Notes: generated by a model not told the origin, from the sequence alone. DNA of 64,000 nucleotides from Neophaeotheca triangularis (GCA_054600435.1 BAAIJX010000014.1:248001-312000); one strand, 5' to 3'. Numbered from the stretch's first letter, positions 5,647 to 45,977 are shown. Numbers and translations: made by a program.

Positions 5647-6523
5647 TATCCTGTTCAGTGTCTGGCCTAGGCCTGTGGTAGGCTGTCTCAAGGTGGTGGC
5701 CAATAATGCTTCCAGTGGTTTGTTTGATGCCTGATGAGAAGCATTTAGAGAGATAGTGATGCGTCGAGGAGCTGAGAAGCGAGTTGATCGATTTGTATCA
5801 GCGACTACAAGCGAATGGAAGAGTGTAACGTGGAAGAATCTAAGTGTTGTCCGTTGTCCGTTGTCGAGGTCACGGAAGATGAAGTCTGCTCTAATCTGGT
5901 TGGAAGTCAGAGGAAGGTTAAGTTAGGTTTTGACTAACCCCAAAGATGATGCTTGGCAGGTGAGGTGCTGCAGCCTGCAGGGACGCCGGACGGGACCTCG
6001 GGAGGTGACGCAGCAGCAACCAGCAAGCAAGCCATGTGGCTGATGTGGCTGATGTGACCCCTGCCACTATGCACTTCCCGGACCTCACTAGGTATAACTA
6101 AGGTAAGGTAGTACTAACTAAGTTAACGGCCGAACGGTCTTGTCCAGACAACACAACGGGCGGCGAGACGAGACGAGACGAGACGACACAACCAAGCTGA
6201 CATCCAATACCGTCTGTCTCGAATAACAAAACAACCCCCTATACCACTGGTCACTCAACTACACGTGATAGAGAGATACGCTCTCTTAAACCCCCACGCC
6301 TCGGCACATCCGATCGCAACCCCCCCTCGAGGCACAGGGTCCACGCGTAGCAGGTAGCCCAGGCCTATAGGTGGTGCTACGTAGCTACAGCTCTCTTCGC
6401 CCGCTGAGATAGGAATCTCGCACAAGCCCAATAAGCACAGCGCTTCGAGGTCGCATCAAGACACTGCAAGAGACTGCCTCCAAAGACCATCACCGCCAGG
6501 CACCAATCCCACCAACAGCAGCC

Positions 6524-8092
6524 ATGGCTAGCGCTGAGGTTGCTACTAGACCTCCTGGTAGGTCCTGCTCTCTCACGCTCAACCGCGCGACGATGCCCTT
6601 TCGCACTCCTATTTGGCCTTTGAGTGCGCTTGCTGACCGAATCTCCACAGACCGCCCGAATAAGAGACGACCTTTCGCAGCTTGGGTACGACGGTTGGCC
6701 AACTTGAAGAGCAGTGACCCGCAAAGCAATGGCAACTCCAACAATAAAAAGAACTCCGGCTCAAAGCATGGCAAGAAATCCAGCAACAAGAACAATCCCT
6801 ATCCGGAGTCGGGTCACATGCGGCCACAGTCACCAGCTAGTAGCGCCAATGGCCACCTCTCTTTTGCGGATCCAGCCCCAAGAATGCATCACGACAACTG
6901 CAGCTATGGATCTCTGCCGCCGAGCATGCTACATGATGGAAAGGAGGGCCAAAGCAACAGCAACAAGAGCAACGCACCAACATTAGCAACGAACCCAGAG
7001 ACTGTGCACAGCGATGCCGGCCATAGCAAGGCCTTCACAAATACCACGGGAGCCGGCGCACTCAGTTCCAACGATGGTGCAGGCGTATGCAGCACTTTTA
7101 GCTCCCCAAACCAGAGCGAGCACTCTCTCACCACAACCTTGACAACAATCCAATCGTCCTCAGCCTCCCAAGCGCTCCATCCTCACGGCCCATCAGGTCA
7201 CCATTCATCCTCGCATCACCAATCTAACCAGCAACCCGTCATGTTCAGCCACCAATACCCAGTCTCTCCTGCCCCCTCAACCGCAAACACTATTTCAGCG
7301 ATCCCACCACACATGTCCTCGACCCACAGCAACCCGCAAAACTACGCCTCGGCAACCGCTAATAACGCCCACAACGACAATGCCAGCATCCTCACCCTCG
7401 CCTCATCCTCGAAACGCCGCCGCCGAAGCATGGACACCGACGCCTCGGTGCGCGCCCTAGCCCCGAGCAGTGTCTGGGGCGGCAGCCGTGAATCCCTCCC
7501 ATTGAGTGTACTCTCCCAAAACTACGCCAACACCGCGTCCGACGCCGCCAGTACCACAGGCATTTACAGCGCCAGCCAAAGCCGGCCCTCAATCGGCGGC
7601 CTCGCCTCCGCTGAACGCGCAAGCATCTACAGCGGCTCCGGCCAAGGCGTGACAGGCCCAGCTCTCGCCAGCGAACGCAACAGCTACTACAAAGGCGCTT
7701 CCAAAAGCGGCGGAAACGACTACAGCGACGCCAAATCCCTCCGCAGCCTCACCAACATCGACGCTCGCAGCCAATACGGCGATACCAAAAGCCAGTACGA
7801 CGCGCGAAGTCTGAATTACGATGCCAAAAGCTTGGATGTCGGGTCGCTGAGGAATTATGAGGGGAGTGTAAGGAGTGGCGCTCTTGGGCATTCGCGAAAT
7901 GATAGCGTGCCGAATAGCATCGGTAGTCCGCTTGTTAGTCCTGGGTTTAGAAGGGGCGAGGCGCTCAGTCGGCGGAGCAGCGATTGGCAGACTGCGCAGG
8001 TTGAGGAAGGGGAAGGGGGGGAGGAGGATGTTGGGGTCGATGTGAGTGGCGAGGGGGAAGAAGCCGGGAAGCGGAAGGGGAGTGAAGTTTAG
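6524..8092 (+). CDS. Ser-rich, largely disordered fungal hypothetical protein
   Basis: 522-aa uninterrupted ORF with a compact block ASILTLASSSKRRRRSMDTDASVRALAPSSVWGGSRESLPLSVLS. No catalytic domain recognised. Confidence 0.75.
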   Translation: MASAEVATRPPGRSCSLTLNRATMPFRTPIWPLSALADRISTDRPNKRRPFAAWVRRLANLKSSDPQSNGNSNNKKNSGSKHGKKSSNKNNPYPESGHMRPQSPASSANGHLSFADPAPRMHHDNCSYGSLPPSMLHDGKEGQSNSNKSNAPTLATNPETVHSDAGHSKAFTNTTGAGALSSNDGAGVCSTFSSPNQSEHSLTTTLTTIQSSSASQALHPHGPSGHHSSSHHQSNQQPVMFSHQYPVSPAPSTANTISAIPPHMSSTHSNPQNYASATANNAHNDNASILTLASSSKRRRRSMDTDASVRALAPSSVWGGSRESLPLSVLSQNYANTASDAASTTGIYSASQSRPSIGGLASAERASIYSGSGQGVTGPALASERNSYYKGASKSGGNDYSDAKSLRSLTNIDARSQYGDTKSQYDARSLNYDAKSLDVGSLRNYEGSVRSGALGHSRNDSVPNSIGSPLVSPGFRRGEALSRRSSDWQTAQVEEGEGGEEDVGVDVSGEGEEAGKRKGSEV

Positions 8093-9648: not shown

Positions 9649-10302
9649 TTAGTCGAAGGGGTTGGAGCGGGTGCCCCACCAGGTCATGAACATGGACAGA
9701 CCGACAGTCTCGAAGACACGGGCAAGGGCGCCAACGGCAACGGTGTCGAGGGGACGCTTCTCGGTGAAGATCTGGGCGATGAACTGGGAATGCCGCGTTA
9801 GTTGCTACTCTTGTTTGAGGGTTCACAGACGTCAGATGAAACGTACAGAAGGAGCAGAGCTGGCCATGAAGACCAAGCTACCCATGTAAGCAGCGCCCTT
9901 GTAGCTCAGAGTGCCAGTGGCATTGAGCAGAGCACCGACGCCGTAAGACTGGACGGCAGAGCCGACGAGGGAGGTACCCCATGCGGCAGCGGCGGAAGCA
10001 GCCTCCTTGGACTTGAAGAACTCCTCCTTGGAGTTGGCGGCCTGGGCCTGGCGGTAGGTGTCGCCGAAGACGGGGCCAAGGACCGCGAGAGAGGCGGCGT
10101 GGTTGAAGACGGTGCCGAGGGCAATGGCAGAGGGCTTGACGGGAGGAAGGTAGTCTGTAGGAGGGAGAGGGTGTTAATGGTCATACTCGATGCGATTGCG
10201 CGGTTTTCGAGGTGTTTTCTGCCGTCACAACAAACATTGCGGGGTTGGACGCAGCAGCTATTGAGTTGGCGTGGGTGGAGGGTGCGACTTACGGAGAGAC
10301 AT
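9649..10302 (-). CDS. DUF1761-like small multi-pass membrane protein, 3 exons (10302-10293, 10154-9847, 9783-9649), 150 aa
   Basis: Spliced by eye: MSLHYLPPVKPSAIALGTVFNHAASLAVLGPVFGDTY...GVGALLNATGTLSYKGAAYMGSLVFMASSAPSFIAQIFTEKRPLDTVAVGALARVFETVGLSMFMTWWGTRSNPFD*. Introns GTAAGT..CAG and GTACGT..CAG; total 453 nt, in frame; strong C-ending codon bias. Confidence 0.85.
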
Positions 10303-10888
10303 GTTGATGGTGTTTGTGTGTGTTTGGGGGGTGGTTGGATTAGTGTTCTTGGGGGTGGATTGGGTGTTGTTGTTGTTGTGGTGGATGAGGAGGAAAAGTG
10401 AAGAGATGCGATGGGAGAGGGTGAAGAGAGTAGAGAGGGAGAGAGAGCGGGCAACCTGCTTCGGCTTCGACGTGCCAGGCGTCTGTGCGCGTGGCTTGTG
10501 CCATGTGACATCATGCGCTAGTTGAGAGTCCAGAAGCTCGGGTGTTTGCGCTGCTTGAGCTTGGGCAATCCATCGTCGATATAAGGTAAGGTAACTTTGG
10601 GGCGGAAACAATGGAAACAATGCAATTGTTGCGTCAATCAATACAGACACTCATTCTTGGGACGGCACGCCTCATTCAATGCCATAATGACGGCGGATAT
10701 CACGAAGACGAAGACGCTATCGACGACGCATCACAACAAGCACACTCTTAAGCAATCGAGGAAATGACTCGAGTCCCCTACTCAACCAAGACAAAAGACT
10801 AGGCTAGGTCATCGCTGAGCCAGCGACTCAAGCAAACATTGACTATTTGAACGAACCTGCTCGCTTCATCACGGCAGCATGACCTCCC

Positions 10889-11723
10889 TCACGCCAACTC
10901 AGGCTGGTCGTTCTCAGCAGAAACCCCCTGATTCTGAGGAAGCCACGCTTCATCCTCCCTACTCACAACAATCTCATGAACCGGCAGCCTCCCATCAACA
11001 ATCTCCCTCCCATTCACCAAATCGTTCTCATCCGCTCTCCTCCCCGCAGCCTCCTCATTCTCCGCAATCCCACTCACCACATGCCTAGCCATCAGCCTCT
11101 TCCTCGCAACTTGCATTTCCACATCCACAAACCACAGCTCGTCCATCATCTCCGCCGCCTCTTTCCACTCTTGTGCCCCCGTCCCTAGGCTCAAGTAGTT
11201 ACCCTCAAACACAACGATCCGCGAGGCAGGTGCAATGGGGATATCGTTCTGGACGGGGTCTTTGACGGCGTGGTCGAAAGACGGCGCGTAGAGGGTGCCG
11301 GATTCGGGACAAATGGGCGCGCGCAGGGCCTTGACGAGCTTCAGAAATGCCGGCGCGTCGAAGGTGAAGGCCGCGCCCCGGCGAGCGTGCGCGGTGTTGG
11401 GGTCTGGCATCGCGTCCAGCTGGGCGCGCGATAGGTGGTAGCCGTCCATGGGGAGGAAGGTCGCGATACCCGGCCCTGCTGCCAGACCGGGCTTTTCGGC
11501 CGCATGGCGTTTGTTGAGTTCGAGAGCGACTTTGGAGGCGAGTGTGGTTTTGCCTGAGGGTGTTGGTGAGTTTTGTACGTCAGGCGGGGGAAGGTATTAT
11601 TGATCGCCATAGCGTACCTGAACCGGGGATCCCGCTAACAGCGATCATGAAGCGCTGGCTTTTGGGCGTCTCTTGGAATTTGCGCCATGTTTGGTCGACT
11701 AGCCTGCTGACTTGTTCTTCCAT
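10889..11723 (-). CDS. YFH7: P-loop kinase, phosphoribulokinase/uridine kinase family (Yfh7-like); intron 11554-11617
   Basis: Walker A GIPGSG|KTT is split by a 64-nt GT..AG intron. Motifs PMDGYHLSRAQL, RRGAAFTFD, YAPSFDHAVKDP and VVFEGNYL. Confidence 0.85.
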
Positions 11724-12984
11724 TTTGCTGCGCACACTCGAGTTGTTGAGTGATTGTTGACGTCGTGGGTTAGATATCGCGACATCTTCGCCAGCATCCT
11801 TATCGTTCAAGGCTGACTGTGGCCCTAGGAGAACGGGGCGCTGTTGCTTTAACCCTGCTTTTTCTTGTATCTGCCCCACGGCGGGGCGAGCTTCGCGCGT
11901 TCCGCGAGTGACGTGGGTCGGAAAATTGGCGGCTGAAGAGCGGGTGGGACCCACGTGCGCTGGGACGACGTCTCTTCCACTTTGATACCCGACCTCTTCC
12001 ATCGACCTTTCGTACTTGCTCATCCAAATATCTAACATCACTCATGTTGGCTGCCAAAAGCCGCGCAAATTCCCTGGAACTGACAGCGGCTATCTACGGG
12101 TTGGACGCCCATCCTAGGCTACGGGTAAACAAGAACACAGACACTTCAAGAAAGGACCTCGTCCAGCACCGTCTACCGTATCCTGCAAAAGCAGGCCGCC
12201 CTCTGCTGCCACCTTCTCTGAAATTGCGTGGAAAAGACAGACACACACCTCCTCGAAAGGCTCTCTGAAGACAGCCCGCCGACTGTGATCACGTGCACCG
12301 ATACTCAGTCAACGCCCGCTGAAATCCTTGAACCTATCTCGGAATCTACAACTGCAGAGCATTAGCTCAGTCTCAATCTTGTAAAGATTTCCGGCTCATG
12401 CGAGCAGACCGTAAAACGCAGGTGGTATCAGCAATTCCCGAGATGAACTTCGGTAGGTACGGGTAGGTAGGGACAGGTATCTCGTTTCTCGAGTCGTCGC
12501 CAAGATCAACGCGAGTCAATAAACAGATACGCGAGGACCGATTTTTGGACTCGCGCGATTGGGATACTTACCCTTTTGCGATGCATGCAGGATGAGCGAT
12601 GATCACATGACACGAGCCTCTTCATTGCGACACGCTAACACTACAATGCTACCGCGCATTTACGGCGACGATCTATCATGACGGATCGAAACCAGATGGA
12701 GCGTGACTGGCTCGCAACGATTTCAGTGTGAGTTCTCACTTGCGCAAGATCATACAGTCATTGGACATGTGTCGTGACATCCATTTGGAGCATCTCGATA
12801 AAACAGACGTTCGACGCAAATTTGGAAGCAACGAACAAAAGAAGTGCTAATAATATAGTGCACAATCGAACAAAGCCATGCGTACACTGTATGCCGCAAA
12901 GACTCTTTAGCACAACACCCAAGATTGCCCTCGGCTCGACATCCTGTGCCCGACAACGCTATCTTCGCTCTTCTGTCCAGCTTG

Positions 12985-13291
12985 TCACCGAGCCCGCTGG
13001 CTCCTCAGTAACAGCGCTACCGCTTGGACAATGCGAACGATAGCTTCGGCGTACGCTATCTCATCGAGTTCGGGTCTTTCCACTGTGGTTAGTTGTTGTC
13101 GCTCTAGATTCAGATCAGCCATCATGCTCGACCCGACGTCGAATCAACGGACTCGTACCCGGTGTCCAGCGACGATGAAATCGACCAATTCTTCTCACGC
13201 AGCGAACGATGCGGTCTCGGAAACGAACTCCCATGCCTATCATGACGAACAACGTCACTAGTGCAACGATTGTTTCTTTGGTCAAGCCCAT
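12985..13291 (-). CDS. Small single-TM protein, paralogue A (exons 13291-13159, 13103-12985; ~83 aa)
   Basis: MGLTKETIVALVTLFVMIGMGVRFRDRIVRCVRRIGRFHRRWTP|ERQQLTTVERPELDEIAYAEAIVRIVQAVALLLRSQRAR*. The 133-nt exon 1 is colinear with paralogue B; 55-nt intron GTACGA..CTGAT..TAG. Confidence 0.62.
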
Positions 13292-14787
13292 TTCATGCTC
13301 TTGCTCTTAGACTGTCGCAGGACTCGACGACCAATATGCGAGGGGAGAATGGGAGATGTTGTTGCGCTTGAGGTAGTCTGTGTCAATCGAGTCAGCATGT
13401 CGACTTGTAAAGCGACGCATCCTTGGGATTGATTTGGAAGTGAATAAGTAACTGCTCGACAAGCTCTATGGTGAATTTTGGTCTAATCTTGGTTTCACTC
13501 TCGCAAGTTTCGAGTGCTCGCTCTTACAAATTCCAGTTGTCCAACTTACTTCTTGTTTGACTGCCCTTCGCTTTTCGGTAGTAATGGCAATATCGTACTT
13601 CTCGACGTGCGTTCGTGCGATTGTTCGCTGATAATTGTTGAAAGTGACGATCAGCTTTATACCATATCGAGGAATCAGGTAGCCAGCGTCTGGGCACTAC
13701 TAACTAGGTAGATGCGCGGGCATCAGTGCGCCAGAGTCGCGTCCGTGCACGAGGTAGTCCGCACCTGTACACCACTGCGCCTTCGCTTTCTACTCGGTCG
13801 AAGTCGCAGGCCGCTTTACGGTCTTGGCATGCGATAGTTTGGGTGCTCACCCTGTCACCTCCAAAAACATGTCCCCTGTTTCTATCGTCCGGGAAGTGAT
13901 GACCTGTCTTTCTCTTCTTCTTGGCGCTACTAAAACCTTGTTAAACGTCGCTTTAATCGCCATCTGCTTCGGTGGACCAACGCAAAGAGCGTGCTACGCC
14001 ATACGATTTCAGGTGCAGCCCGGTGAGGAATTCTAGTGTATACCCCGTTAGCAATTTGCGTCCTTACCTTACGAATAGCTCCCTGTCTCGAGTCTCATAT
14101 TCTGCACTTGCTAACGCTACATTTGCTAAGCAGCTGAGGTTTCCTGATAATAATTCAACAGATAACGCCTCGGTCTTCGTAATAGGAAGTAATCTGAAAC
14201 TGCGAAATGTTGAAAAACCCAATTGACTCTATGTACAAGATTCGATCTTTACTTGCAGCAAGGTGATCCGATAAAGGCTGTGATTTTTGTTCAAATCCGC
14301 ATTTTGGCCCTAGAACCCATGTGGTCAGAGTTAGGCTGCTAGGAGGTAGGCATAATAACGTCCGAAGGAGTAGTGTTTACTACTGTAACTAGTCAAGTGT
14401 ACCTATACCGTGGACTTAGGTACATAAGTAAGTAGTAGTAAGCCTTATAGACAGAGGAAAAGGGGAAGAACAAGAGCGGATTGTATGCAAGATGTAGTAG
14501 TCGCATTCCTCAGGCCCGAGAGGCCGGGAGACGACTGAGTGCATGTAGGCGATGACAAGGCAGCATAGCGAAGGAAAGGTATACTATATTTGCTGTCTGA
14601 GGTGACCGTGCAGCAGGTAGGTAAGGTTGGTAAGGTACCTTGTCGTGATTGGACCAACTCACACCTTACACGACGACCTGAAGATATCGAACATCTCACT
14701 CTCAGCTGTCACAGCGGATGTCGTCCAATTTGGATCATGGTAGCGCAAACCTAAAGGTTCGACGGATTTTGAGGCCCTTGCTTTTGA

Positions 14788-14794
14788 TGAGTCA
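14788..14794. promoter_or_regulatory. Gcn4/CpcA/Cpc-1 consensus site (TGAGTCA) upstream of MES1
   Basis: Exact TGAGTCA about 220 nt upstream of the MES1 ATG. Aminoacyl-tRNA synthetases are known cross-pathway-control targets. Confidence 0.5.
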
Positions 14795-15013
14795 GGAGGG
14801 GGATTTCGAGAAATGCCCCTCACCTTAGGACGATAGAACTACAATTCTATTTCGAAAACAAAAGGTGAAAGCAAACCGAGCTTCAGCACACACTTTCTGG
14901 TCCATTTGACGCTTCGTTTGATCAGAGTCTTGAAAGAACACGCTGCAGCGCGACAAATTGAACGACCCAGCGAAGCGCAGAAACAGAAACAGAAACAGAT
15001 CCCTCTCGCCAAT

Positions 15014-16951
15014 ATGGCAGACGGCGGAAAGCGCGAGATTCTGCCAGTGGACGGCGAGAATAACATCTTGATCACGTCGGCCCTCCCATACGTCAACAAC
15101 GTCCCCCACTTGGGCAATGTCATCGGCAGTGTCCTTTCCGCGGACGTTTTCGCGAGATACTGCAAAGCACGCAGCTACCCGACCCTCTTCATCTGCGGTA
15201 CCGACGAGTACGGGACGGCAACAGAAACCAAGGCGATCGAGGAGAAAGTGACGCCGCAACAGTTATGCGACAAGTACAACAAGATCCATAAAGAGGTGTA
15301 CGACTGGTTCGGCATCGAGTTTGATCACTTTGGCCGCACACCCACGCAGCAGCAGACGGATATTACGCAGGACATTTTCGGCAAGCTGCACAAAAATGGA
15401 TACTTGGAGGAGCGCACGACCACCCAGCCCTACTGTGAGGAGCACAAAAGCTTTTTGGCCGATCGGTTCGTGGAAGGAGAGTGCCCATTGTGCGGGTACG
15501 CGGACGCCAGAGGAGACCAGTGCGATAAGTGCGGAAAGCTGCTGGACCCGCTGGACTTGATCAAGCCGAGGTGCAAGCTGGATGGTGCTTCGCCGGTACC
15601 AAAAGAGACTACGCACGTGTTTTTGATGTTGGATAAGCTGCAGGACAAGGTTGAGACGTGGGTGAAGAAGAGCAGCAGTGAGGGTGATTGGTCGTCGAAC
15701 GGTGTCAACATTACAGAGGCGTGGTTGAAGGAAGGGCTGAAGCCGAGAGGCATCACCAGAGATTTGAAGTGGGGAACGAAGGTGCCTTTGCCGGGTTACG
15801 AGGAGAAGAGCATTTACGTCTGGTTTGATGCTTGCATCGGGTACGTCTCAATCACCGCAACCTACACAGACCAATGGGAGAAATGGTGGCGAAACCCGGA
15901 GCAGGTGAAGCTCTTCCAGTTCATGGGCAAGGACAATGTACCCTTCCACACCGTCGTCTTCCCTAGCTCGCAACTCGGTACGGGCGACAAGTGGACGATG
16001 CTTAACCATCTTTCCACGACCGAGTACCTCAACTACGAGCACGGCAAATTCAGCAAAAGCCGTGGTGTAGGTGTCTTCGGTACGAGCGCAAAGGAGACTG
16101 GCGTTTCAGCAGACGTATGGCGATACTTCCTTCTCCTCCGAAGACCGGAAACCAGCGACGCCGAGTTCGAGTGGGAAGGCTTCGTCAGTGCAAACAACAA
16201 CGAGCTTGTGGCCAACTTTGGCAACTTCGTCAACCGCATCCTCAAGTTCGTCAACTCGGCCAACTACGACAGCTCCGTCCCTCAAGCCCCTGAAATCGAC
16301 CCATCCTCCGACCTCGCCAAGCGCCTCGAGCAGCACAAGGAAGAAGTCAACGCAGCCCTCAAGCAATACCGCGACGACATGGAAGCCGTACACCTGCGTC
16401 AAGGCCTGCTAACCGCCCGCGACATCTCCTCGCTCGGCAATAAACTGCTCCAAGACAATCGCCTCGACAACAGTCTCTTCAACAACGAGCGCGCCCGCTG
16501 CGACGCCGTCGTGAACATCGCTCTCAACCACGTGCACCTCCTCGCCTCGGTCATTGCGCCCTACCTCCCCGCCACCTCCTCCGCCATCCTCTCGCAACTC
16601 AACACCACCCTCCTCATCATCCCGGATAAATGGGACGCCACCTCCATTCCCGTAGGCCACAAGATCGGCAAGGCCGCGCATCTGTTCAAAACCATCAAGC
16701 CTGAGAAGATCCAGGAGTGGAAGGAGCTGTTTGGTGGTAGCGAGTTGATGAAACAGAAGCGCGAGAAGGAGGAGAAGGCTGCGAAGCGCAAAGCGGAGAA
16801 GGAGGCCAAGAAGGCGAGGAAGGCGGCGGAGAAGGGCAAGGAGACTGTTGAGGCGGTCGAGAAGGATGGAGTGCAGACCGAGCCAAAGGCTAAGGAGGCT
16901 GTTGATGAGGTTACTGAAGGGACTAAACAGGTTTCTTTGCAGACCAGTTAG
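15014..16951 (+). CDS. MES1: Methionyl-tRNA synthetase, cytoplasmic
   Basis: ITSALPYVNNVPHLGN (HIGH-like), Zn-knuckle CxxC motifs, YVWFDA, QFMGKDN, KFSKS (KMSKS-like) and a Lys/Glu-rich tail. ATG at 15014. Confidence 0.96.
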   Translation: MADGGKREILPVDGENNILITSALPYVNNVPHLGNVIGSVLSADVFARYCKARSYPTLFICGTDEYGTATETKAIEEKVTPQQLCDKYNKIHKEVYDWFGIEFDHFGRTPTQQQTDITQDIFGKLHKNGYLEERTTTQPYCEEHKSFLADRFVEGECPLCGYADARGDQCDKCGKLLDPLDLIKPRCKLDGASPVPKETTHVFLMLDKLQDKVETWVKKSSSEGDWSSNGVNITEAWLKEGLKPRGITRDLKWGTKVPLPGYEEKSIYVWFDACIGYVSITATYTDQWEKWWRNPEQVKLFQFMGKDNVPFHTVVFPSSQLGTGDKWTMLNHLSTTEYLNYEHGKFSKSRGVGVFGTSAKETGVSADVWRYFLLLRRPETSDAEFEWEGFVSANNNELVANFGNFVNRILKFVNSANYDSSVPQAPEIDPSSDLAKRLEQHKEEVNAALKQYRDDMEAVHLRQGLLTARDISSLGNKLLQDNRLDNSLFNNERARCDAVVNIALNHVHLLASVIAPYLPATSSAILSQLNTTLLIIPDKWDATSIPVGHKIGKAAHLFKTIKPEKIQEWKELFGGSELMKQKREKEEKAAKRKAEKEAKKARKAAEKGKETVEAVEKDGVQTEPKAKEAVDEVTEGTKQVSLQTS

Positions 16952-17428
16952 GGGGAGCGGGTGAGAAGCGATGAAGATGCATGGAAATGTTTGACGAGAG
17001 ATGTTTGACGAAAGTTGCTGTTCAGGGGAAGCGTGGCGCTGATAGTATAGTCTAGGAAGGATGGGCAAGAGGATACGAGTCACACGCTTATTCAACTGCG
17101 CGGTGGTCATATAGACAGGAATCGCTAGATCTCTAAAGCACTGGCTTTTGTGTGAGAACTGTCCAAAGACTTCTGTAGATTGCATGGCACATGTTAAGTG
17201 GCTTGCAGACTAGGCTACCACTGCTGCTGTGATCCACTGCTTAGTAGCGAGCGCCGCCTTTTGGTCAAGGAGGAGCGAGAAGTCGCGGGCACCACGCAGA
17301 GAACCTAGTCACTATAGGTAGGCATTGGACGGGGCACTTAGTAGTGGACATGCGCCATAGTCGCGGTTGAAGTGGACCCTTAGCGTCAAGTGGCAAAGTA
17401 GGTTAGTCAAACCTGGGGCCGAAGGACA

Positions 17429-17530
17429 CAAGCGGGTGACAGTAAAACGGGGCCAGCTTTAGCTCGAAGGACAGTATACAAAGTGGTAGAATCCGACAAG
17501 AACTGGCCCTGTTTTACTGACACCCGCTTG
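17429..17530 (+). repeat. Inverted repeat, 28-bp arms (17429-17456 and 17503-17530)
   Basis: CAAGCGGGTGACAGTAAAACGGGGCCAG versus the reverse complement of CTGGCCCTGTTTTACTGACACCCGCTTG: 26/28 match. One of the two mismatches is a G-U wobble on the + strand. Confidence 0.9.
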
Positions 17531-17660
17531 GGACACTAGGTTGAGGGGTCGCTTTGACCAGCAGGGGTCGCTTTAGTGGATGTCAAGAGGGCCCGGGTAC
17601 ATGTAGGTAGAGGAACCGAAGCCATTCGGAATGCTCAATTTCCCGCTAGCGCTTCCGCCT

Positions 17661-17724
17661 TGCTGGTTGGGTGTGCTGATGATGATTGATGTTGCTGGTC
17701 GGGTGTGCTGATGATGATTGTTGT
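17661..17724. repeat. 32-bp tandem duplication
   Basis: TGCTGG(T/C)... unit TGCTGGTTGGGTGTGCTGATGATGATTGATGT occurs twice, with 2 differences. Confidence 0.85.
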
Positions 17725-18549
17725 TGAAACTAAGCACTATGGTGCACAGCCATACTTACCCATTCTACCCATCCAAGGTGATCCGCGCCGAAGTAACATT
17801 TAAAGCGAAGGCCTTCCCTCACACCTTCACAACCACTGCAAACTAACTACTCAAAGATCACTATATCTTACAGAAAAAGAGTGACCAAACCATCAAACAC
17901 CCTCCTCGATCTTTTACACACTCCCAACTTCGACTTTGCGAGGACTTTAACGAGTTGCGAAGGTCTCACCCAATCACGTGCTACAGCTTCGTCTTGGTGA
18001 GTAGCACCTATTTTACTCTTTTTTTCCCCTTCAGATCAATACTCAAAAGTGATATGCCACTTAAACACATAGTTTACCATCTAAGACCGCCTCTACTGTT
18101 TTGAACGAACGCGAAAACCTCCTACCTCCTCGCGCAATACACAATCGCAAAACTGAGTCCTGGTCGTTCATTCTTTGGTCTTGGCTCCCACATCGGCCCG
18201 GACGAGACTTTACAAGTTTGCGGAGTCGCTCCGAGCCTTGAGTCTATGCTTGTTAGGATCTTCCGACAAGTGTGTACCTACTTCACGATATAGTGCAACA
18301 GAGCTCCAATGCCCCCTTACTTACCATACCTCGCTTCTCGTTCATCTTATTTTACATGATGTACCTTCATCTGCTAGCCATTGCCGTACTCTTCCTCGTG
18401 AATCTCGTTCGCAAACACTAGGTTGGCACAGCCCGAACTAACAGTTTCGATAAACAGAACACACTTTCACTTGATCTACAACCGATCCCACTACCCGCCA
18501 ATCAATACTAATCAATCGTCGTCTCGATCGTTCGACCTCTAGCGACACA

Positions 18550-19088
18550 ATGCATTGGTCCCTCGAAGCCATCCTTGCCCTCATCACCCTCATCTTCATG
18601 ATGATGCTCGCAATTCGCTTCGGAGACCGTCTGAAAGCTTGCCTCGGAAGCATCCATCGTTGTCTCAAGAGACACATCGACAGTATGTTACCTTATTGAC
18701 TTGCAACTTTACCCTTACCTCTAATCGAAAATCGATCGAGTTCCTCGCTTGGCTGACAGGGTGTACAGTGCCATTACTGCCTACGCAAGAACCACAACTA
18801 CCACGAGAGGCACCCGGAGTTCGACCCCACGTTCAAAACGTTCATACCGACCATATGCTCCACGTCAACGACGTGCACAATGAACGGAATGTCCACAACG
18901 TACAAAACGTACAAAACGTCTACAACGTCATCAATTGTAACGTCGACAACTTCTCAAATGTTATGCAGGAGGAGCTCGCAATCGCGTTACAATCTCTGGT
19001 ATTTCTCGCACACGAGCTCCGACGACACAGACAACGAAGCTGGCACGATCTCGAACTCGGTGGGCGTGCTCGCCTGCACGCACAGTGA
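18550..19088 (+). CDS. Small single-TM protein, paralogue B (exons 18550-18682, 18769-19088; 150 aa), with Asn/Val repeat insert
   Basis: MHWSLEAILALITLIFMMMLAIRFGDRLKACLGSIHRCLKRHID|MPLLPTQEPQLPREAPG...NVMQEELAIALQSLVFLAHELRRHRQRSWHDLELGGRARLHAQ*. Intron GTATGT..CTGAC..CAG; total 453 nt, in frame. Confidence 0.78.
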
Positions 19089-21040
19089 GCAAGCAAGATA
19101 CCGGGATCCGCCGGACGATGCCAACGTGGGGGCGATGGAGCCGTGGATGATTGGGAGAGGGCAATTAAAGGTCGCTGTATGACCGGGATGTAGGCTGGGG
19201 AATGATGGAGTAGCCTGAGGCGCATCATGAGCATGGTGCTACGAGTAATGAGTCCGGAAGTCATGGAATTTACGAAAAATCTGTTGTCCTGTCACGTTGT
19301 TAGCGCTTGCGTTTCCTTGGGAGTTCGAGAGATGGGAAGATCAGATCCACTGGCAAATGCTGTATTTCGAGCATGTATCGTTCATCAGCCATAAGAAATC
19401 GGTAGACTAAAGTTCGGCCTATGTCAGAAGGAGGTCAAGGCGGATCGATAACTAGCATATTTAGAAATTGACCACAGTGTGTCTGTCGGATGTCGTATGC
19501 ACAAGTATCTACGTACGTGAAGGACTCGGAGAAATAGTTGACTGAAGGGTCGGGCTGTGATTAGCAGAGTCCGGTTTGACATAAGTGAACACTTATAGCC
19601 ATTGCTCATGGGAGCTCCGTTATGTATAACATAAGGCAAATCCGCGTGGGATGGCCTTTTGCCGAAATGAGAGCGAGTGCTAAAGGGCGATGTGCGTAAT
19701 ATATCACCACCGACGTGCCGTTATGACAGTTGCTGTGAGTGTTCTTGTGAGCCGTGATAGTGGACAGGGAGCTATCCAGGCCTCGAGGCACAGCGGCATA
19801 TCATCAGCTGCCACTACCTAGTATTGGCAGCGTCAGGGGTAGGCAACGCCGCCAGCAGCTTTTTTTTTTTTCCTGGTCCGTATCAGATAACGGTCTCGAC
19901 AAGCTTAAGTAGGTACTTGGCAGGCACGAGACCGCAGTGATAATTGACCCGAGGTCTCGTCGCTTGAGGACGTTCTGGCGGAGAAGAGTCCAACAGCTTC
20001 GTCATCCAAGCCGACTCCATTGCTGCAGGATCTCCTGCGGGACTCTTGCAGGCTCTAGGACTAATAATGTAGTACTGTATCAAACATCTCCTCGCTAATC
20101 ATCTAGCCTCTAATGCGACGGCAGGCGGTCTGGCACACTTGCTCGGAATCAATCCACACTGCATACATGCGGATCGTGTTCAATTACTTCGATGTGGCTG
20201 CACGATGAACTTCCATTGTGGCGATTTGCAGGTCGTGGCAGTCAGTATAGGGGTACATGACAAGCTGTCGGGCCTTAAAGAATACATACTTGGGCAGGTA
20301 CGACACAAGTGTCATGGCATGAGCCGATCCGCTGTGTCTTACCCTAGGTTTTCCGGAAAGGGGGTTAGCAGCGTAGGGAAGGATGTACCTCCTACCTTCG
20401 AGGTAAGGCTAAAACATGTGCCCTGTATGCGTGAGCGATTCCCAGGTGATAACAGTAGTCGCAGCACGTCAGTGATGAGAGGGTCTGTGCGTGCTACACC
20501 CTCGCTTCACTGCATGTCACCTGGGCACATGGGCAGCTCATGGATTTGTCCGCACCATGGTCTGCGGCCGATCCTGAGTTCGCCAGAACAGCCACTCATC
20601 TGGGATCTGTCCTGAAGTCGCCAGGCTCGAGCCAGGTCAGTCTCCAGTCGCTTGACGTATATAATTATCATGTCGAAGCCGTCCGTTATGATTACACTTT
20701 CATTCACAGGTCGTTTCTACCTTTACCCATCAACATACAAACATTACACAACTATACGTGAGCCTGCCGCTCTCTTTCGATCGTAAGTCGATCAATAATA
20801 TTTCCTTCACTGCACTACATGTTTCCGGCATCCACCGAGGCCTCGTTTGGTAGGCAAATTGCAACGCTTATACGACGAATTGCTTCCCATGACTGCCGGT
20901 TCCCATAAATCAATACTCTAAAATTCACGATCTCATCATCCACTAATGGCGCAACCAAAAGCAGATAACACCACGCTTCCCAGCTCTACCCATCAGCCAG
21001 CGTCCCTTAGATTTCTTGATCGCTCAGCTTCAATTCTAGT

Positions 21041-21480
21041 ATGGATTGGTCTCTCGAAGCCATCCTCGCTTTGATCACCCTCCTCATCACATTACTCCTC
21101 GCCCTCCGCTTCCGGGAACCCTTGAAAGCTTGCTTCCAGTGGATCCATGAACGGTTCGGGAAACTAATGGCCGTGGAAAGTGGGTTGTCTCTTTAATTGT
21201 TCCTTTTCTGGCGTCAAATGGATTTTTTCGGTCGAGCGACGAGTGCCATTGGCTGACACCGCCTCTAGCAACGCCGATACCGCCCACGCAAGAGCTACAG
21301 CTGCAAGAGCGGACAGGAGCTCCCGCATACGTCTACAATGTTATGCACGAGGAGCTCGAAATTGGTTTACAGGCCTTGATGTCTATCGGACGCGGAATAC
21401 GGCGGCAAAGACAGGGAAGCTCGCACGACTTGGAAGCTGGCGAATCGGCACCGAGGGAAGGGCAAGTTATATTACAGTAA
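21041..21480 (+). CDS. Small single-TM protein, paralogue C (exons 21041-21179, 21269-21480; 116 aa)
   Basis: MDWSLEAILALITLLITLLLALRFREPLKACFQWIHERFGKLMAVE|TTPIPPTQELQLQERTGAPAYVYNVMHEELEIGLQALMSIGRGIRRQRQGSSHDLEAGESAPREGQVILQ*. Intron GTGGGT..CTGAC..TAG; both exons align with paralogue B. Confidence 0.78.
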
Positions 21481-22650
21481 ATGGGCGATGAGGCTGGAAG
21501 AAGTGATGGACCTGCCAACGCAGAGACAGTCGAGTTGAGGCGGGTTCCGGATGGGATCGAAGGATAGCTGTATGGCTGGAATGTCTTGCGGTGATATACT
21601 GGGGCGCGGAAGGGAGTCGCATGCGGGTGGCGTCGCGACGAATGTACTACGAGGAACGCTGCTGGATGACCAGGTTGAGCTATGTCTTTACGATGTTAGC
21701 GACTGCTTTTCTGCGGGAGTTTGTGGTGTTGGGTGCTCCGATCGATAGCGCATTCATCCTTTACCGAAATCATCGAGCTGAGTCTCTTTTTTAGCTTTGG
21801 CCAAGTACATTACTCAAGGAACCTCTTGGCATTGAGCTTCTCACCACTGTCAGTGTATAGCCCGTAGGCATGAAAAAAGCGTTGTTGCAATCGGCACACT
21901 CGCTTGCAAGGGATCTGTAGGCCTTCAGTCGTTCATTTCACACGTGGAGAAAACTCACCAGTACCACCAGACCACACACACACACACACACATTCATTCT
22001 GCATCATCAAATCACGCATACGACAAGATCACGAAAAAACTGCACCGAGTAAAATCAGCCGGGTCAACTTGCACCGCGGGTCACCATTTGTAGCTGAGCA
22101 CTCACACCATGCCCCATCAACTCAAGTCAGTAATCTCGCAAAGGAGGTAGCAGAAGGTGAAGGGGCCCTAGACTAGATCAAGTCAGAAGAAGCCAACCCG
22201 TATCGAGGGGGTTTGCGCGAGTCAGTATGTTCGAGGTGTTTTTGGTTCGAGTTTTTGTTATTGGATATGAACCGCCCAACGCTATGCTAGACGGCAAGCC
22301 TTGCCCGTCAAAAGAAAGAAACGCCATTTTGTTGTTTTGCGCAAACTCGGTGAGTTGCCTCCCGGTTCTTGCAATTGTCTTTGAGCAGACGCTCGCCGCA
22401 TCGCGGATTTGCGGTCTTGTGTGTACATTCGATGAGCCTGGGAGAGGCTTTCGTAGTGAGCGTGCACGAGACCGCTGGCGGCGATATGCATGTTCAAGTA
22501 ATCATTCGCGAATGTGGGCTAGTTTCGCTCGATGCCGGAGCTATGGAATACTAGAAGCATTCAGTAGCTCAACAGGCTGTCAGTCGTAGTCAAGTCGGGC
22601 TTGCTCGTGCAATTGCTTCAGAAAATATCGTCTTTCGCTGTCAAGCATAC

Positions 22651-24775
22651 TCACATGCCGGGAGGGGGAGGAACCTATTCAACGTTAGTCGAGGGTTTCA
22701 CTAGTAAGTTTTTCCTGCATTTACTCACCGCGTTGTAGCCAGATCCTGGAGCGCCCAAGGCATCGTCACCGGGAGGAGGGGGTGGTGGAACGTCGCCGTA
22801 CTGCTGCTGGTGCTGCTGAGACGAGTCGCCGTAGCCGGTAGCTGCGCCGTAGTCGCCGTAACCTCCGTAGCCGGCTCCCTGGGCGTGGGCCATGGCGTTG
22901 TAGTCGTAACCGCTTCCTTGAGCTTGGGCGGGAGCCGCGTAGCCCTCGGCCTGCACTGGAGAGCCGGCCTGGCCGCCTTGCTGGGCACCAGCAGGGTTGA
23001 GGCCCATGGCGGCAAGCATAGCGCCGAAGCCACCAACGGACTGGTAGGGGTCCTGGCTCGGGTTGGCGGCGTAGTATTGCAGCCAGGCCGTGAGCTGTTC
23101 CGTAGTCATGCTGTTCCAGCCACCAGCAGCCGCAGCATTGGGGTCAGCAGCGGTCTGCGCGCCATACCCACCGTAGCTCTGCGCAGCCTGATCACCGTAA
23201 CCTTGGGCGCCGTATCCTTGATCGTAGCCCTGAGCCCCGCCGTAGCCGCCACGGTTGCCGCCCCCGTAGCCGCCACTGCCGTTGCGATCACGGTTCTGGT
23301 AACCGCCGCCACGTCCACCACGGAAGCCGCTGTCACGTTGCATTGGTGCTGGGCGATTCTTGAAGTTGTTGTATTCCTCAGTGACCTGCTGGAGCAACCC
23401 CTTACAGAGCTCAATACCCTTGGCGATATCTTCTTGCTCGCGGGCACTATTTCAATCACGATTAGTATTGGGTGATTGCAACTCTCTTTCAGGGTCGCAA
23501 CTTACGAGACGTTGAGGAACATTGGCTTGTCAACTTCTCTGCCGGTTTCGTTGTCGATATAGCCCGAACCGTGACCCATGACCTGGACTCTGCCGTTGCC
23601 GATCTGAGTTTGGATGTACTTGACGTTCTCGCCGTTGGGACCGACGATCTTGGCGCGCAGGTTGAATCCACGCTGGGGCTCTAGTCCAACGGGAAGCTCT
23701 TCGTTGGCCCATGGGCGGCGGAATGGTGGCTCACGCTGCTCAGGCTTCCTTTCCTCGGGCTCGCGACGCTGGCGTCCAAAGCGGCGTTGGTCGACAAGGT
23801 CAGGCAGAGCTTCCTCGATTTTCTTCTCAATCCTCTCAATGGCAGCCTCCAGCCCTTCCTTAGTCTTGCTGGTAACATGAAGATGGAGAGGCGGGTTCTT
23901 GTTGTTTACAAGTATTAGTATTGGCGCGTAATCTTTGTAGTAGAGATATTCAGGTACCTTTAGATTGGCCATGGACTTGTCGGGGTAGTAGTTTCCACGG
24001 GTGGTAACATCTTGTGTGAATGAGTCAGTGCGGTCCTAAAAAGTTAATGCTTCTTGTTAAAAATGGTGGCATACCGGCGCCGGTCTCCTCATGAATCTAG
24101 ATGTTACACCGTCAGCATACTGGGATCAATGTGGCATACTGGCTGCGAAGCCTCAATGTATCAATAGAGTCATCTTCTACGGGTCATTGTCCGCGCCCCG
24201 AAAGATGACATGAAAGTGAAGGCCTGAGTGCATTAGAGTGGTCGAGTTAAAAAGTGCTTTACCTGTTTCTGAAACGCTCCTTTGGTGAGGAGGTAACGGT
24301 TCTTGAGGTCATTGACTTCGATGTCGCGGATGAAGTCGCCTCCTTCGGTGTAGGATTCACCACGAGTGGCAACGGCGTTGGACGTAGTGGTGAGCGCATT
24401 GTTGACCGATGGGGTGAGGGGCTGTCAGATGGAATTAGCAAAACTTGCTTTTCGCCTGTGTAGTGAGGTTAAACTTACAGATTGCACGGGAGGTGACGCA
24501 GAGTGGCCTGTAAGACCTTTGCTCTTGAGATCGGCATTGATCTTCGCAGCCATGGCGGCGGCCCTCTGCTGGGGGGTCATCTTCGAGGCATCGCCGTCGG
24601 CGGCCGGAGACTCGACGCTTTTGGCAATGGGACTGCGCGAGCGCACCGTGCCATTGTCCTGGCGGGATGGAGAGCGAGAGCGGGTGCGGCTGTCGTGACC
24701 GCGCTGTTGCACAGGCTCCATCTCGGTGGTTCTGTCGAATCGCGAGCGCTTGCGGAGCACAGCCTGGTCAGACAT
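22651..24775 (-). CDS. KH-domain RNA-binding protein (KHDC4/BLOM7-like), ~7 exons
   Basis: Spliced motif DIEVNDLKNRYLLTKGAFQKQ|IHEETGA|DVTTRGNYYPDKSMANLK|NPPLHLHVTS. Second KH: FNLRAKIVGPNGENVKYIQ...VQVMGHGSGY. Gly/Tyr/Gln-rich tail; last 24-nt exon encodes VPPPPGM*. Confidence 0.85.
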
Positions 24776-27968: not shown

Positions 27969-30900
27969 ATGGCCGCCAATGGCGAGTCGGACAACATGAG
28001 AGCAATGGGCTCGTCCGACTCGGAGGTGGCGAGAACAAGCACATCGAAGAGTACTTACCAATCCGCCGAGTCCAGCTCAAAGACGTTCCATTCGACGCAC
28101 TCCTTCCAGTCCGAGGGCCAGCAATCGCGCTCCTCGTCTTCGCAGTTCTTCCAATCAGGAGGCCAAAGCGGAGACTTTATGTCATCCCAGTCTTTTCAAC
28201 ATGGTGGGCAAATAGGCGATGCGATGCAATCACATTTCTCCGAACAGGGCCAGCGCAAAGGGCAAACAGATCGCACATCGTCGTCCCAGTCCACCCAGCA
28301 CGCGTCACAGCAGGGGATTGCCTACGACGACAACTCTCGCCAAGGATCAAGCCAGCGGCGCATTGACCAGCTTCCACCACCAGATGAAGAGGATGTTGAG
28401 CGGGAGCCTGCGTCAGAAAGAACACCTTTGATACCTCGAGATGGTGATGCGACCGAAGCGCCAGACCAGAGTCGTTCGGACACATCAGCACACTTCCTTC
28501 TTAGCAAGGTCAACCATGACAACAGCAAGGGATCAAAACGAAGATGGCCAAGTCTCGTGGCTCTTGTACTGCTATGCATCGTCGTGGTGCTGATCCTGGT
28601 CTTTGCGTTCCTGACACCTTCAATGGTGCAGGAGTATGCGCAACAGGCCGTTGTTTTTGAACCGACTAGTCTGTCGATTGACTCTTTTACGTCCTCTGGA
28701 GTCCGTGCCCGGATTCAGGGTGACTTTACAATGGATGCCAGCAGGGTTGAGAAGAAATCGGTACGAGACTTTGGCAAGTTTGGGACGTACATTGCGCGAG
28801 AAGTGGAGAGTGGAGAAAGCGATGTCAAGGTCTCGCTACCCGAGTATGGCAATGTTATGCTTGGAACAGCGCAAATTCCGAGTATCAAGGTCAACATTCG
28901 TAACGGGCATACGACTCATGTGGACTTTCTCAGCGACCTGGAACCTGGAGACGTGGGAGGGATCCGCAAGATTGCAAATGATTGGATAGATGGTAGACTG
29001 GGTCAGCTTAGGGTTGTTGGAAAGGCATCTGTCCCAATTAAGTCCGGGATGCTCAGTTTTGGAACGCAAAACGTAATCCACGAGCTGCTTTTCTCGAACA
29101 AGGACATACCGGCTATACCTTCGTACGAGATTGGGAAGCTCAACGTACGGGAGGTTACCATTCCTACCGGCAAGGGCATGGCTGCTGAGGTCTCATTGGC
29201 CGTCAAAAATGAGTATCCGGTAGAGTTTATGATTCCTCCACTTGGTTTCGGTATACTGGTAGATGGCTGTGCTGAGAGCCAGCCGCAGATAATGATCGCA
29301 GACGCTACGACGGACTCGATTCACGTTCGCCCGGAGCAGGATCTCGAGCTCAATGTGACGGGTATTGTCCGCCAATTGCCTGACAACTTCACGCACGAGT
29401 GCCCTGGCAAAGGCTACTCTCCAATGGACACGCTTCTGGGTCGCTACATCAATGGCAAAGAGAACACAATTTATGTACGAGGGTCGGATGCACCCTCTAG
29501 CGAGACACCCCGATGGGTCAATGACCTGATGAGGGACATCACAGTCCCTGTGCCCCTCCCAGGCCGCACATTCGGCCATCTGATCAGAAACTTCTCCATG
29601 ACGGAAACGCACTTCTCATTGCCTGACCCATTGTCCGACCCCAAATCACCCGAATCGAACCCTCGTATCAGCTCCAAGATCCAGGCGCTGGTCTCTCTTC
29701 CTGAGGAGATGAACTTTAATGTTTCCGTTGGCCGTGTCCGCGCTGCCGCCGAAGTCTTCTTTCACGGCAAGAAGCTGGGAAACCTGGATTTGCACAAGTG
29801 GCAGCAGGCTAACAGTACACGCATCGACAAAACAGAAGACGAAGGCCCTACGTTGAAGGTGGAGAGTTTGGTAGATCAAGCACCGCTCGACGTCACTGAT
29901 TCAGACGTCTTCACCGACGTCCTGCAAGCCGTGCTTTTTGGTGGCGAGGAGGTGCAACTTCATATCAAAGCAGATGTCGATGTGGAGCTAGAGACGGCCG
30001 CACTTGGCGCTGTCAGAGTGAGAGATATACCCGCGGAAGGAGAGGTTCCGATCAAACGTAGGTATCGTCCCGTTGACGACTAAGGCCGCATCATGTGAGC
30101 TCATGCATATTTGATACCAGAGTAGATAGCTAAATCGACATCACTTTCAGCCATCCGCAAGCCCCAACCTCCTCCAGATGGTGATGACGCTCCTGGCGAG
30201 CCTGGCAATGTCCCACCATCACTCCGTCCCACGATGCACGACCTGCGCATTGAGTCCACGACCCACGATTCCCTCACCCTAACAGCCCTGGTCAACATGA
30301 CCAACCCAACCAACTACAGCGCGACCGTCCCCTACATCAACCTCAACATCCTTACAAACAACACCCTCCTCGGCCACGCCATCGCCCGCAACCTCACCAT
30401 CCTCCCGGGCCAAAACGACAACCTTCCCGTCTCCGCAATATGGTCCCCAACCTCTAGCCCGGAAAGCAAAGCCATGGGGAGCGAGTTCCTGAGCCAGTAC
30501 ATTTCTGGTTACAACACGACGTTAACAATCCAAACCCACGCCGACAGCATCCCACACCAGCCCGCCTTGGGCGAAGCTCTAGCAAAATTCAACATCACGC
30601 TCCCAACCCCCTCCCTCCGCTCTACCCCACCCTCCGACCCATCCCATCCCGAGCCCCCGGAAAAAGAAGGCCCCCACTTCCTCAACGACGCCACCTTCCA
30701 CCTACTCACCAGCTCGGCAACCTTCATCCTGCTCTCCCCACTGCACTACTCGACCCTCCTTATCACCGACCTCAACGCCACGGCCTACTACAAAGGCTCG
30801 CCAGCGGGTCAAATCCTCTACGACTTGCCGTTTATGGTGCCGCCGGTGGATGAGCACGGCAATGGCGCTTTGACGCCGCGTCTGCCCGTTGATTGGAGTT

Positions 30901-31049
30901 TGGGGAGCGTGGGGTATGATGCTGTGAAGAATGCGCTGGGTGGGACGCTGAGGTTGAGTGCGTATGCTGAGGTCGGGGTGGGGATTGGGCATTGGAGGGA
31001 GAGGGTTTGGTTTAGGGGCGGAGGGTTGGGGGCCAAGGTTAGATTGTGA
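27969..31049 (+). CDS. Type II membrane protein, Tag1/DUF3712-like; intron ~30058-30129
   Basis: Cytosolic ERTPLI dileucine-type motif, a single TM (WPSLVALVLLCIVVVLILVFAF), then repeated beta-rich LEA2-like segments (NMTNPTNYSATVPY). ORFs 27969-30083 and 30234-31049 join through a GTAGGT..TAG intron. Confidence 0.75.
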
Positions 31050-45282: not shown

Positions 45283-45977
45283 AGCCGAGACGAACGATTT
45301 TATCCTGCGATAGACTCGCCACAACGCAATTGAACATAGCTGGGAGTGAAAGATTATGGTTTGCCAGTTGAAATGTTCCTCCAGGACGACGTCCAAGATG
45401 CTCGACTTTGCCGCCAACTTGCTTGCGAAATGGCAGACACCACCCTAGTCCAGCGCTGCAGGTAACAAGTATACTCGATGAATGCCGAAAAGGAAGGGGT
45501 GGGGGGAGGGTAGGAAAGGGGTTCCTAACCCGAAAGTTCACTCCATAACCGTTCGCATCGGGCACCTTGCTGCACGCGTTATCATCTGCTCAACAACAAG
45601 GGTCTGCTCTGTGACTTCCACTTTTGACTCCCCCTATGTCAGATTTGGCAGTCCGGCGTAGAAGGAAGTTTTGTCATCACGTCCGCCACGTGCCCCCGAC
45701 CACAGCAAAATAAGCTTTTCGGCTGGTTGAATGTATGGGAATGTCTATTAAGTCAGTGACGCGGGGTGGTGAGGTGAGGTCGGCGAAGCGATGGCCTGAG
45801 GCCGCTATTTCAGCGCGTCGTCAGCAGTGGCCATCTGCCATTGAACTTCCCACTGGCTACTCGAAAGCTCCAAGGTTAACCTCGCCGGGGCGACACCTTT
45901 TGAAGTTGAATACCCTGCTCTTCGCTTCATCAATTTTTCTCCCCCACTCGCTGTCCACACAACATCAAAAAAATTCA

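Follow-up and report, generated by a model that had tools for sequence, protein, structure and literature searches.

Three short two-exon genes, here called A, B and C, lie between positions 12985 and 21480 of a 64,000-nt stretch of Neophaeotheca triangularis DNA (GCA_054600435.1, BAAIJX010000014.1:248001-312000; hereafter the window, with positions counted from its first nucleotide). They are paralogs whose similarity goes beyond chance, and the position and phase of their single intron are conserved. With a probability of about 0.68, lower for A than for B and C, we take them to be a real coding family of small membrane proteins anchored at their N termini by a predicted transmembrane (TM) helix. 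The family is likely old, locally duplicated, restricted to its lineage and undescribed in any database, with products of 83 to 150 aa. The genes and their parts are as follows.

Gene A, 13291-12985, minus strand: exon 1 of 133 nt, intron of 55 nt, exon 2 of 119 nt; predicted protein of 83 aa.
A exon 1, 13159..13291, minus strand: ATG at 13291, 44 codons plus 1 nt; predicted TM helix and strongly cationic amphipathic juxtamembrane helix.
A intron, 13104..13158, minus strand: 55 nt, phase 1, GTACGA...CTGAT...TAG; a second candidate donor 6 nt downstream also fits.
A exon 2, 12985..13103, minus strand: 38 codons plus stop; helix-like tail with a basic LR..R.R at its end, lacking significant similarity to B or C.
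Gene B, 18550-19088, plus strand: exon 1 of 133 nt, intron of 86 nt, exon 2 of 320 nt; predicted protein of 150 aa.
B exon 1, 18550..18682, plus strand: predicted TM helix and juxtamembrane helix.
B intron, 18683..18768, plus strand: 86 nt, phase 1, GTATGT...CTGAC...CAG.
B exon 2, 18769..19088, plus strand: predicted cytosolic tail with conserved PTQE.QL, helix NVM.EEL..., RR.RQ and HDLE.
Gene C, 21041-21480, plus strand: exon 1 of 139 nt, intron of 89 nt, exon 2 of 212 nt; predicted protein of 116 aa.
C exon 1, 21041..21179, plus strand: predicted TM helix and juxtamembrane helix.
C intron, 21180..21268, plus strand: 89 nt, phase 1, GTGGGT...CTGAC...TAG; a second, phase-2 solution is also possible.
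C exon 2, 21269..21480, plus strand: tail, with an AlphaFold2 (AF2) helix at residues 19-57 of the exon-2 peptide.

Paralogy was assessed by comparing each exon peptide, using phmmer, with all 1883 six-frame pieces of at least 20 aa in the window. The first exons of B and C retrieved each other with E-values of 1.4e-11 and 5e-11, those of A and B matched at 8e-6 and those of A and C at 2.9e-4 and 7.4e-4, while the next-best piece never scored better than 0.6. The second exons of B and C also matched (2.4e-7 and 9.5e-9). In the exon-1 alignment the start ATG occupies the same column in all three genes, and the residues that a preliminary description of this DNA had listed as invariant (E6, I8, A10, L11, T13, L14, R23, F24, C31 and I35) are so, as is M1; R38 was also flagged, but its status is contingent on gap placement. 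The exon-2 motifs that the same description attributed to B and C, PTQE.QL, NVM.EEL.I.LQ.L and RR.RQ.S.HDLE.G, are present, and both genes stop at comparable points after the common C-terminal motif. B exon 2 contains in addition about 40 residues enriched in N, V, H and Q, which C lacks; within this stretch are tandem repeats at 18897-18961 on the plus strand (a 9-nt unit in 2.6 copies and a 24-nt unit in 2.0 copies, as detected by TRF). A search of the window for a fourth copy with an exon-1 hidden Markov model (HMM) and with sensitive blastn and tblastn yielded none; the HMM, a check proposed at the outset, did recover one relative elsewhere, described below.

The splice structure argues for genes rather than chance open reading frames (ORFs). 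All the coordinates, exon and intron lengths, GT..AG boundaries and intron phases first proposed for the three genes were reproduced. The spliced frames are open throughout (83, 150 and 116 aa), and each meets a stop shortly past exon 1 if left unspliced. TGGCTGA[CT] sits 10 to 12 nt before the AG in all three introns, which all end in YAG. We defined an intron-like solution as a donor GT..G, a CTRAY 8 to 30 nt before YAG, a length of 45 to 120 nt and a gain of 38 or more codons in the open frame. Such a solution exists at the same phase and place in 3/3 of A, B and C versus 4/204 background ATG-initiated ORFs of 35 to 80 codons; A and C each have the one alternative listed above. In both B and C, PTQE.QL precedes every in-frame ATG in the frame of exon 2, and it can thus be translated only via splicing.

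B and C show coding-type constraint. In local nucleotide alignments scored against shuffled sequences, they gave z values of 34.9 for exon 1 and 23.9 for exon 2, whereas similarity was gone from the intron (z 2.4) and from the 500 nt upstream (z -0.3). The DNA kept between them thus consists only of the proposed coding parts and about 300 nt of 3' flank. Over 109 aligned codons the proportions of synonymous (pS) and nonsynonymous (pN) differences were 0.566 and 0.277, giving a pN/pS of 0.49 with a bootstrap 95% confidence interval (CI) of 0.37 to 0.64; 0/2000 resamples reached 1. With Jukes-Cantor correction, the synonymous rate (dS) was 1.05 and its ratio to the nonsynonymous rate (dN/dS) was 0.33; in comparisons involving A, synonymous sites were saturated. 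The differences between B and C at codon positions 1, 2 and 3 numbered 9, 2 and 12 in the gapless first 31 codons and 8, 8 and 16 in a 35-codon block of exon 2. In both gapless blocks the annotated frame was stop-free and gave the best amino acid identity of the six frames (23/36 and 19/35). In the comparison between copies, another of the checks proposed, the pN/pS CI thus excludes 1 for this pair. With dS near saturation and dN/dS well below 1, the comparison also points to old duplicates under purifying selection, and the rapid divergence originally suggested for the family is not borne out.

Other readings of the same DNA were considered. ORFs running antisense to exon 2 in B and in C were rejected as genes, their similarity (20/43) being confined to where they overlap the exon-2 block, and the other sense frame over these exons showed no similarity between B and C. 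Repeat-induced point mutation was rejected as the source of the divergence, because transitions were not in excess of transversions (14/15 and 15/16) and the corresponding indices were normal; the divergence is thus ordinary and old.

All database queries were single-exon peptides. Against Pfam-A, with E-values up to 10, none of the six exon peptides matched a family at its gathering cutoff and 4/6 had no match at all; the best scores were 13.4 bits for DUF7629 and 13 bits for DUF2975, each with a cutoff of 27. PDB sequence profiles gave nothing significant (best E-values, 0.84 and 0.62). The proposal of paralogous genes belonging to no named family thus agreed both with these searches and with the exon-1 E-values, and the available parts of the literature held no account of the family. 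The ESM Atlas offered no usable match for B exon 2; the clusters nearest C exon 1 were short ascomycete fragments scoring 0.83 to 0.88, below the 0.9 lead level, and one of them was named automatically after an oxidoreductase. Metagenome scans produced 20 pattern matches with the exon-1 profile and 253 with the exon-2 alignment, with 0 confirmed in either case. A word-index search with C exon 1 against longer proteins scored 767 candidates, with 0 at E-values up to 1; in another with C exon 2, against proteins of comparable length, no candidate had three words in common with the query.

A single relative was found elsewhere. An exhaustive search of 1.84 billion protein representatives with the exon-1 profile returned four proteins at E-values up to 0.001. 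Three of these (P0008 to P0010) were rejected as tandem-repeat proteins of 174 to 718 aa with 4 to 13 short matching stretches each. The true relative, P0007, is a 69-aa ORF that covers profile positions 1 to 42 of 44 (E 6.1e-12); it was also the sole hit (1/298 candidates) of a word-index search in which an exon-1 profile built from four sequences was compared with proteins of similar length. P0007 is 64% identical to B exon 1, compared with 52% for C and B in the same alignment, and its first 14 residues are those of B; it has Gly at positions 23 and 31, where A, B and C have Arg23 and Cys31. It forms a single-member cluster from one source and two contigs. Its similarity stops where the intron would be expected to start, which fits an unspliced gene call running across a conserved exon boundary. 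Since short single-exon queries miss distant relatives, and a distance like that between A and B (about 22 bits) would be invisible in large libraries, the family may extend further than these searches suggest.

The products of A, B and C are helical and hydrophobic in character. The best 19-residue Kyte-Doolittle mean between residues 4 and 24 (KD19) was 1.81 for A, 2.42 for B and 2.49 for C; net charge was 0, -1 and -2 over the six residues before the helix and +6, +3 and +1 over the 15 residues after it. These values fit the hydrophobic N-terminal helix and anchor with an outside N terminus and cytosolic C terminus that had been suggested at first. By hydropathy and charge, all three are predicted type III signal anchors, a class with a hydrophobic N-terminal helix at least about 19 residues long and a more positive C-terminal flank that lacks a signal open to cleavage. 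The juxtamembrane stretch after the TM helix is cationic and strongly amphipathic, with a hydrophobic moment of 0.93 in A (residues 26-43) and 0.63 in B. From a four-row alignment, AF2 modeled B exon 1 as a single helix over residues 2-43 with a mean predicted local distance difference test score (pLDDT) of 83. From a two-row alignment, the helix in the C exon-2 peptide reached a pLDDT of 87 to 97 over the block shared with B, the mean for the peptide being 69.9.

Conservation along the exon-1 helix may be one-faced. The conserved positions E6, A10, T13, L14, 17, 21, F24, 28, C31 and I35 all fall at 120 to 220 degrees on a helical wheel, and the conservation moment over residues 4-36 was matched by 201/5000 shuffles; we regard the stripe as suggestive, not strong. 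The only polar residues in the TM part of the alignment are E6 and T13. It contains neither His nor Trp, and the H..xW pore motif of class IA, M2-like viroporins is not present in it.

On this basis we propose the following arrangement, in which the insertion into the membrane, its topology, the contact surface and any role in regulation are inferred. Exon 1 would encode one continuous helix, with residues 4 to 22 or so acting as a hydrophobic signal anchor. By the positive-inside rule, an N terminus of 3 to 5 residues would lie outside, in the lumen or extracellular space, and the remainder in the cytosol. Residues from about 23 to 43 would form a cationic amphipathic helix that lies on the cytosolic leaflet or continues from it. 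The conserved stripe would provide a helix-helix contact surface, for self-association or for docking on a larger membrane protein, in the manner of small regulatory subunits. Exon 2 would add a cytosolic tail made up of a linker, a confidently predicted helix and, in B and C, the basic RR.RQ and HDLE end; the length of this tail would evolve freely, by insertion of tandem repeats in B and with an unalignable helix in its place in A.

Several observations weigh against a coding family of this kind. P0007, the only outside relative, is an uncurated gene call known from its protein alone. For exon 1 of B and C taken by itself, the bootstrap CI of pN/pS extends to 1.04, and dN/dS was computed on a protein-guided alignment, with pN biased downward outside the gapless blocks. 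Codon usage gives a mixed picture of coding potential. With a log-likelihood per codon of 0.147, B ranks in the top 5% of 220 background pieces and C, at 0.076, in the top 18%, whereas A (-0.017) equals the background mean (-0.014); the 18 long training ORFs span 0.07 to 0.32, and one antisense frame of B equals the sense frame (0.175). The AF2 models rest on two and four sequences only. The stripe is likewise drawn from four sequences, and within the TM part alone its moment is marginal (380/5000 shuffles for residues 4-24 and 862/5000 for residues 5-22). Of the three genes, A has the weakest case. Its exon 2 matched nothing except itself among the 1883 six-frame pieces, and a 4-codon upstream ORF (13282-13296 on the minus strand, ATG at 13296) overlaps its start codon out of frame. 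Together with the second candidate donor, these features mean that A may be decaying or wrongly modeled.

The same features bear on the possibility that the ORFs are relics, once coding or still so in relatives, and now untranslated or decaying, A above all. The background-level codon usage of A, its unmatched exon 2 and the ORF overlapping its start are what such decay could leave, and none of the window's own exon-1 ORFs was among the database proteins searched. However, the ATG column, the open spliced frame and the donor, branch and acceptor signals are kept in all three genes, the CI of pN/pS between B and C (0.37 to 0.64) excludes 1, and exon similarity has been retained while that of the intron and upstream region has been lost. 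We therefore consider relics unlikely.

The gene models could also be right and the destination different. Signal anchors of the mitochondrial outer membrane combine a moderately hydrophobic N-terminal TM helix with a basic flank, and in Tom20, Tom70 and OM45 an N-terminal TM helix and basic flank precede a bulk that is cytosolic. The N-terminal TM helix of our family, with its positive, amphipathic C-terminal flank, resembles this design, in particular in A, whose TM helix is only moderately hydrophobic (KD19 1.81) with a flank of +6. Those of B and C, in contrast, are very hydrophobic (2.42 and 2.49), a property that favors targeting by the signal recognition particle to the endoplasmic reticulum (ER), and the flank of C carries a net charge of only +1. 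Delivery to the mitochondrial outer membrane or another organelle, in place of ER-derived membranes, appears improbable for the family.

A bolder version of the anchored-family reading seems to us quite improbable. Here A, B and C would found a new class of fungal single-span regulators or pore-formers, in which the stripe makes the TM and juxtamembrane helix assemble into an oligomer or onto a transporter or enzyme, and the variable tails tune that partner or trigger permeabilization of the membrane under particular conditions. If true, this would make them the cellular equivalent of miniproteins of the viroporin or regulin type, missed so far by standard gene prediction in fungi.

The layout, in which a short ectodomain and a TM helix are followed by a Cys-containing cationic amphipathic helix and a short tail, with the polar E6 and T13 conserved on one TM face and the family duplicated locally, would also suit a module that damages membranes or serves in recognition, for instance a pore of the viroporin or holin type, an executioner of cell death, an allorecognition factor or a killer element. 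The preliminary description had raised a possible role in signaling, allorecognition or cell death, which our data do not sustain. HeLo, HeLo-like and SesA were absent from the Pfam results of the six exon peptides at E-values up to 10, and no other family reached its cutoff. The neighborhood is one of housekeeping genes, and no NLR/STAND (NACHT/NB-ARC), secondary-metabolite or transposon domain was found among the ORF pieces scanned, which do not amount to a full gene prediction. Constraint is purifying and not diversifying. The juxtamembrane Cys, moreover, is not retained in P0007. Palmitoylation at this site had been suggested as well; a Cys at position 31 is indeed common to A, B and C, but P0007 has Gly there, so that the modification would not be family-wide. 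Altogether, we judge a membrane-damaging function very unlikely.

Finally, that the ORFs are the first exons of larger, mis-modeled genes (e.g., N-terminal anchors of enzymes) whose stops are bypassed by further splicing is barely credible: the short ascomycete fragments nearest C exon 1 in the ESM Atlas, one bearing an oxidoreductase name, hint at it from below the lead level (0.83 to 0.88), but B and C end comparably after their common C-terminal motif, their similar 3' flanks lack a coding-like pattern, and no Pfam domain appeared in the six-frame pieces of at least 45 aa scanned from each of the three genes downstream to its next known neighbor.

The conserved 3' flanks and the gene that separates A from B are located as follows.

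Methionyl-tRNA synthetase (MetRS) ORF, 14837-16951, plus strand: tRNA-synt_1g, E 3.6e-150; between A and B, outside the family.
B 3' flank, 19089..19347, plus strand: islands co-linear with the C 3' flank.
C 3' flank, 21481..21743, plus strand: islands co-linear with the B 3' flank.

The two flanks align with a z of 6.0, and within them 19294-19347 and 21690-21743 are 68.5% identical over 54 nt (E 0.008). In 150-nt bins the z values were 4.3 and 9.9 for the first two and 0.3 beyond 300 nt. The islands stand at nearly equal distances from the B and C stops (about +30, +85 and +206/+210 nt), and one of them holds CTGTATG; they are probably conserved elements of the 3' untranslated region. A third exon in the conserved flank was rejected for want of a coding-like pattern, and a repeat element or transposon was rejected in view of the unrelated flanks and introns. 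Neither Rfam, at the gathering threshold, nor ARAGORN returned any match in the whole window. The 1.95-kb spacer between B and C (19089-21040) yielded neither an ORF piece matching Pfam nor a further copy of the family; a T13 run lies near 19860 in it, and a TATATAA-like site near 20659.

The window resembles nuclear DNA of a fungus: its GC content is 54%, its introns are short, with GT..AG ends and CTRAY branch sites, and its Pfam matches include a fungal-type zinc finger, Tag1 and housekeeping enzymes. The description of the surroundings as a housekeeping neighborhood held for MetRS, for a KH-domain gene and for the rest of the window. A is flanked by a YFH7-like P-loop gene and, in divergent orientation to A, by the MetRS gene. 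B and then C follow in tandem downstream of MetRS, and C converges with the KH-domain gene (22678-24035, minus strand). Two adjoining ORFs at 10892-12041 on the minus strand look like a YFH7-type P-loop kinase whose GIPGSG and KTTLA are split by an intron; they had no Pfam match at E-values up to 0.001 and were assigned by eye from the GKTTLA motif.

Other features of the window were recorded in passing. The sequence AATCAATMC occurs in the sense orientation 50 to 143 nt upstream of the ATGs of A, B and C (13426-13434 on the minus strand, 18500-18508 and 20908-20916 on the plus strand). It is found eight times in the window, with 0.63 expected, the other sites being at 10636, 20147, 52065, 54956 and 63485. 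As the motif was derived from the upstream regions of the three genes, three of these matches arise by construction and only five are independent; the motif may be a promoter element in general use in this genome. The spacer between MetRS and B includes, at 17660-17726, a tandem repeat of a 32-nt unit (2.1 copies, 94% matches). An ORF with a DUF1761 domain was identified at 9835-10173 on the minus strand (E 5.2e-25), and a plus-strand ORF at 10265-10522 gave a weak, TM-driven match to Myc_target_1 (E 0.0053, below the cutoff) and is probably an antisense shadow. Long open frames of 307 to 559 aa lacking a Pfam family at E-values up to 0.001 are present at 6413-8089, 45714-47210, 56340-57395, 39782-40744 and 30126-31046, all on the plus strand.

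These results add three probable unannotated genes to a housekeeping region. They also indicate that raw sequence can yield short spliced genes through paralogy, shared intron phase and codon-level constraint. Nothing known is overturned, and the family opens no long-standing question.

Comparison with known systems places the family among small membrane proteins. Orphan small TM proteins restricted to particular fungal taxa are similarly short, with a single predicted TM helix, hardly any detectable homologs and no place in curated families; yeast proteins of this sort are the subject of 'De novo emergence of adaptive membrane proteins from thymine-rich genomic sequences' (PMC7005711). In contrast to them, A, B and C are spliced and form three old paralogs with saturated dS, and the family is kept in at least one other genome, as P0007; these features argue that they are not newly emerged ORFs. 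The M2 protein of influenza A virus, a type III miniprotein, has its parts in the same order: a very short outside N terminus is followed by one TM helix, a Cys-containing cationic amphipathic helix next to the membrane and a short cytosolic tail, about 80 to 150 aa in all. The resemblance is one of layout alone. M2 forms a homotetrameric channel with the TM motif H..xW, whereas A, B and C have neither this motif nor sequence similarity to M2 and are cellular genes in a housekeeping region. The HeLo, HeLo-like and SesA domains of fungal STAND systems are likewise fungal and have an N-terminal helix able to enter membranes. They are, however, globular helical bundles of about 150 to 200 aa, usually beside or fused with NLRs; our genes had no Pfam match to them and no NLR among the scanned ORFs.

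The yeast proteolipids PMP1 and PMP2 and the animal regulins likewise combine small size, one TM helix with a conserved face and a basic cytosolic flank. By analogy, we infer that the conserved stripe may act as it does in small regulatory subunits of this type. They have no sequence relation to A, B and C, and the regulins are tail-anchored and thus of opposite polarity. Fungi commonly have lineage-restricted small membrane proteins, few of them with a known role. A, B and C would represent a new family of this familiar kind, with a single membrane span, and their conserved helix face and three neighboring paralogs make them a workable case for probing the function of such proteins.

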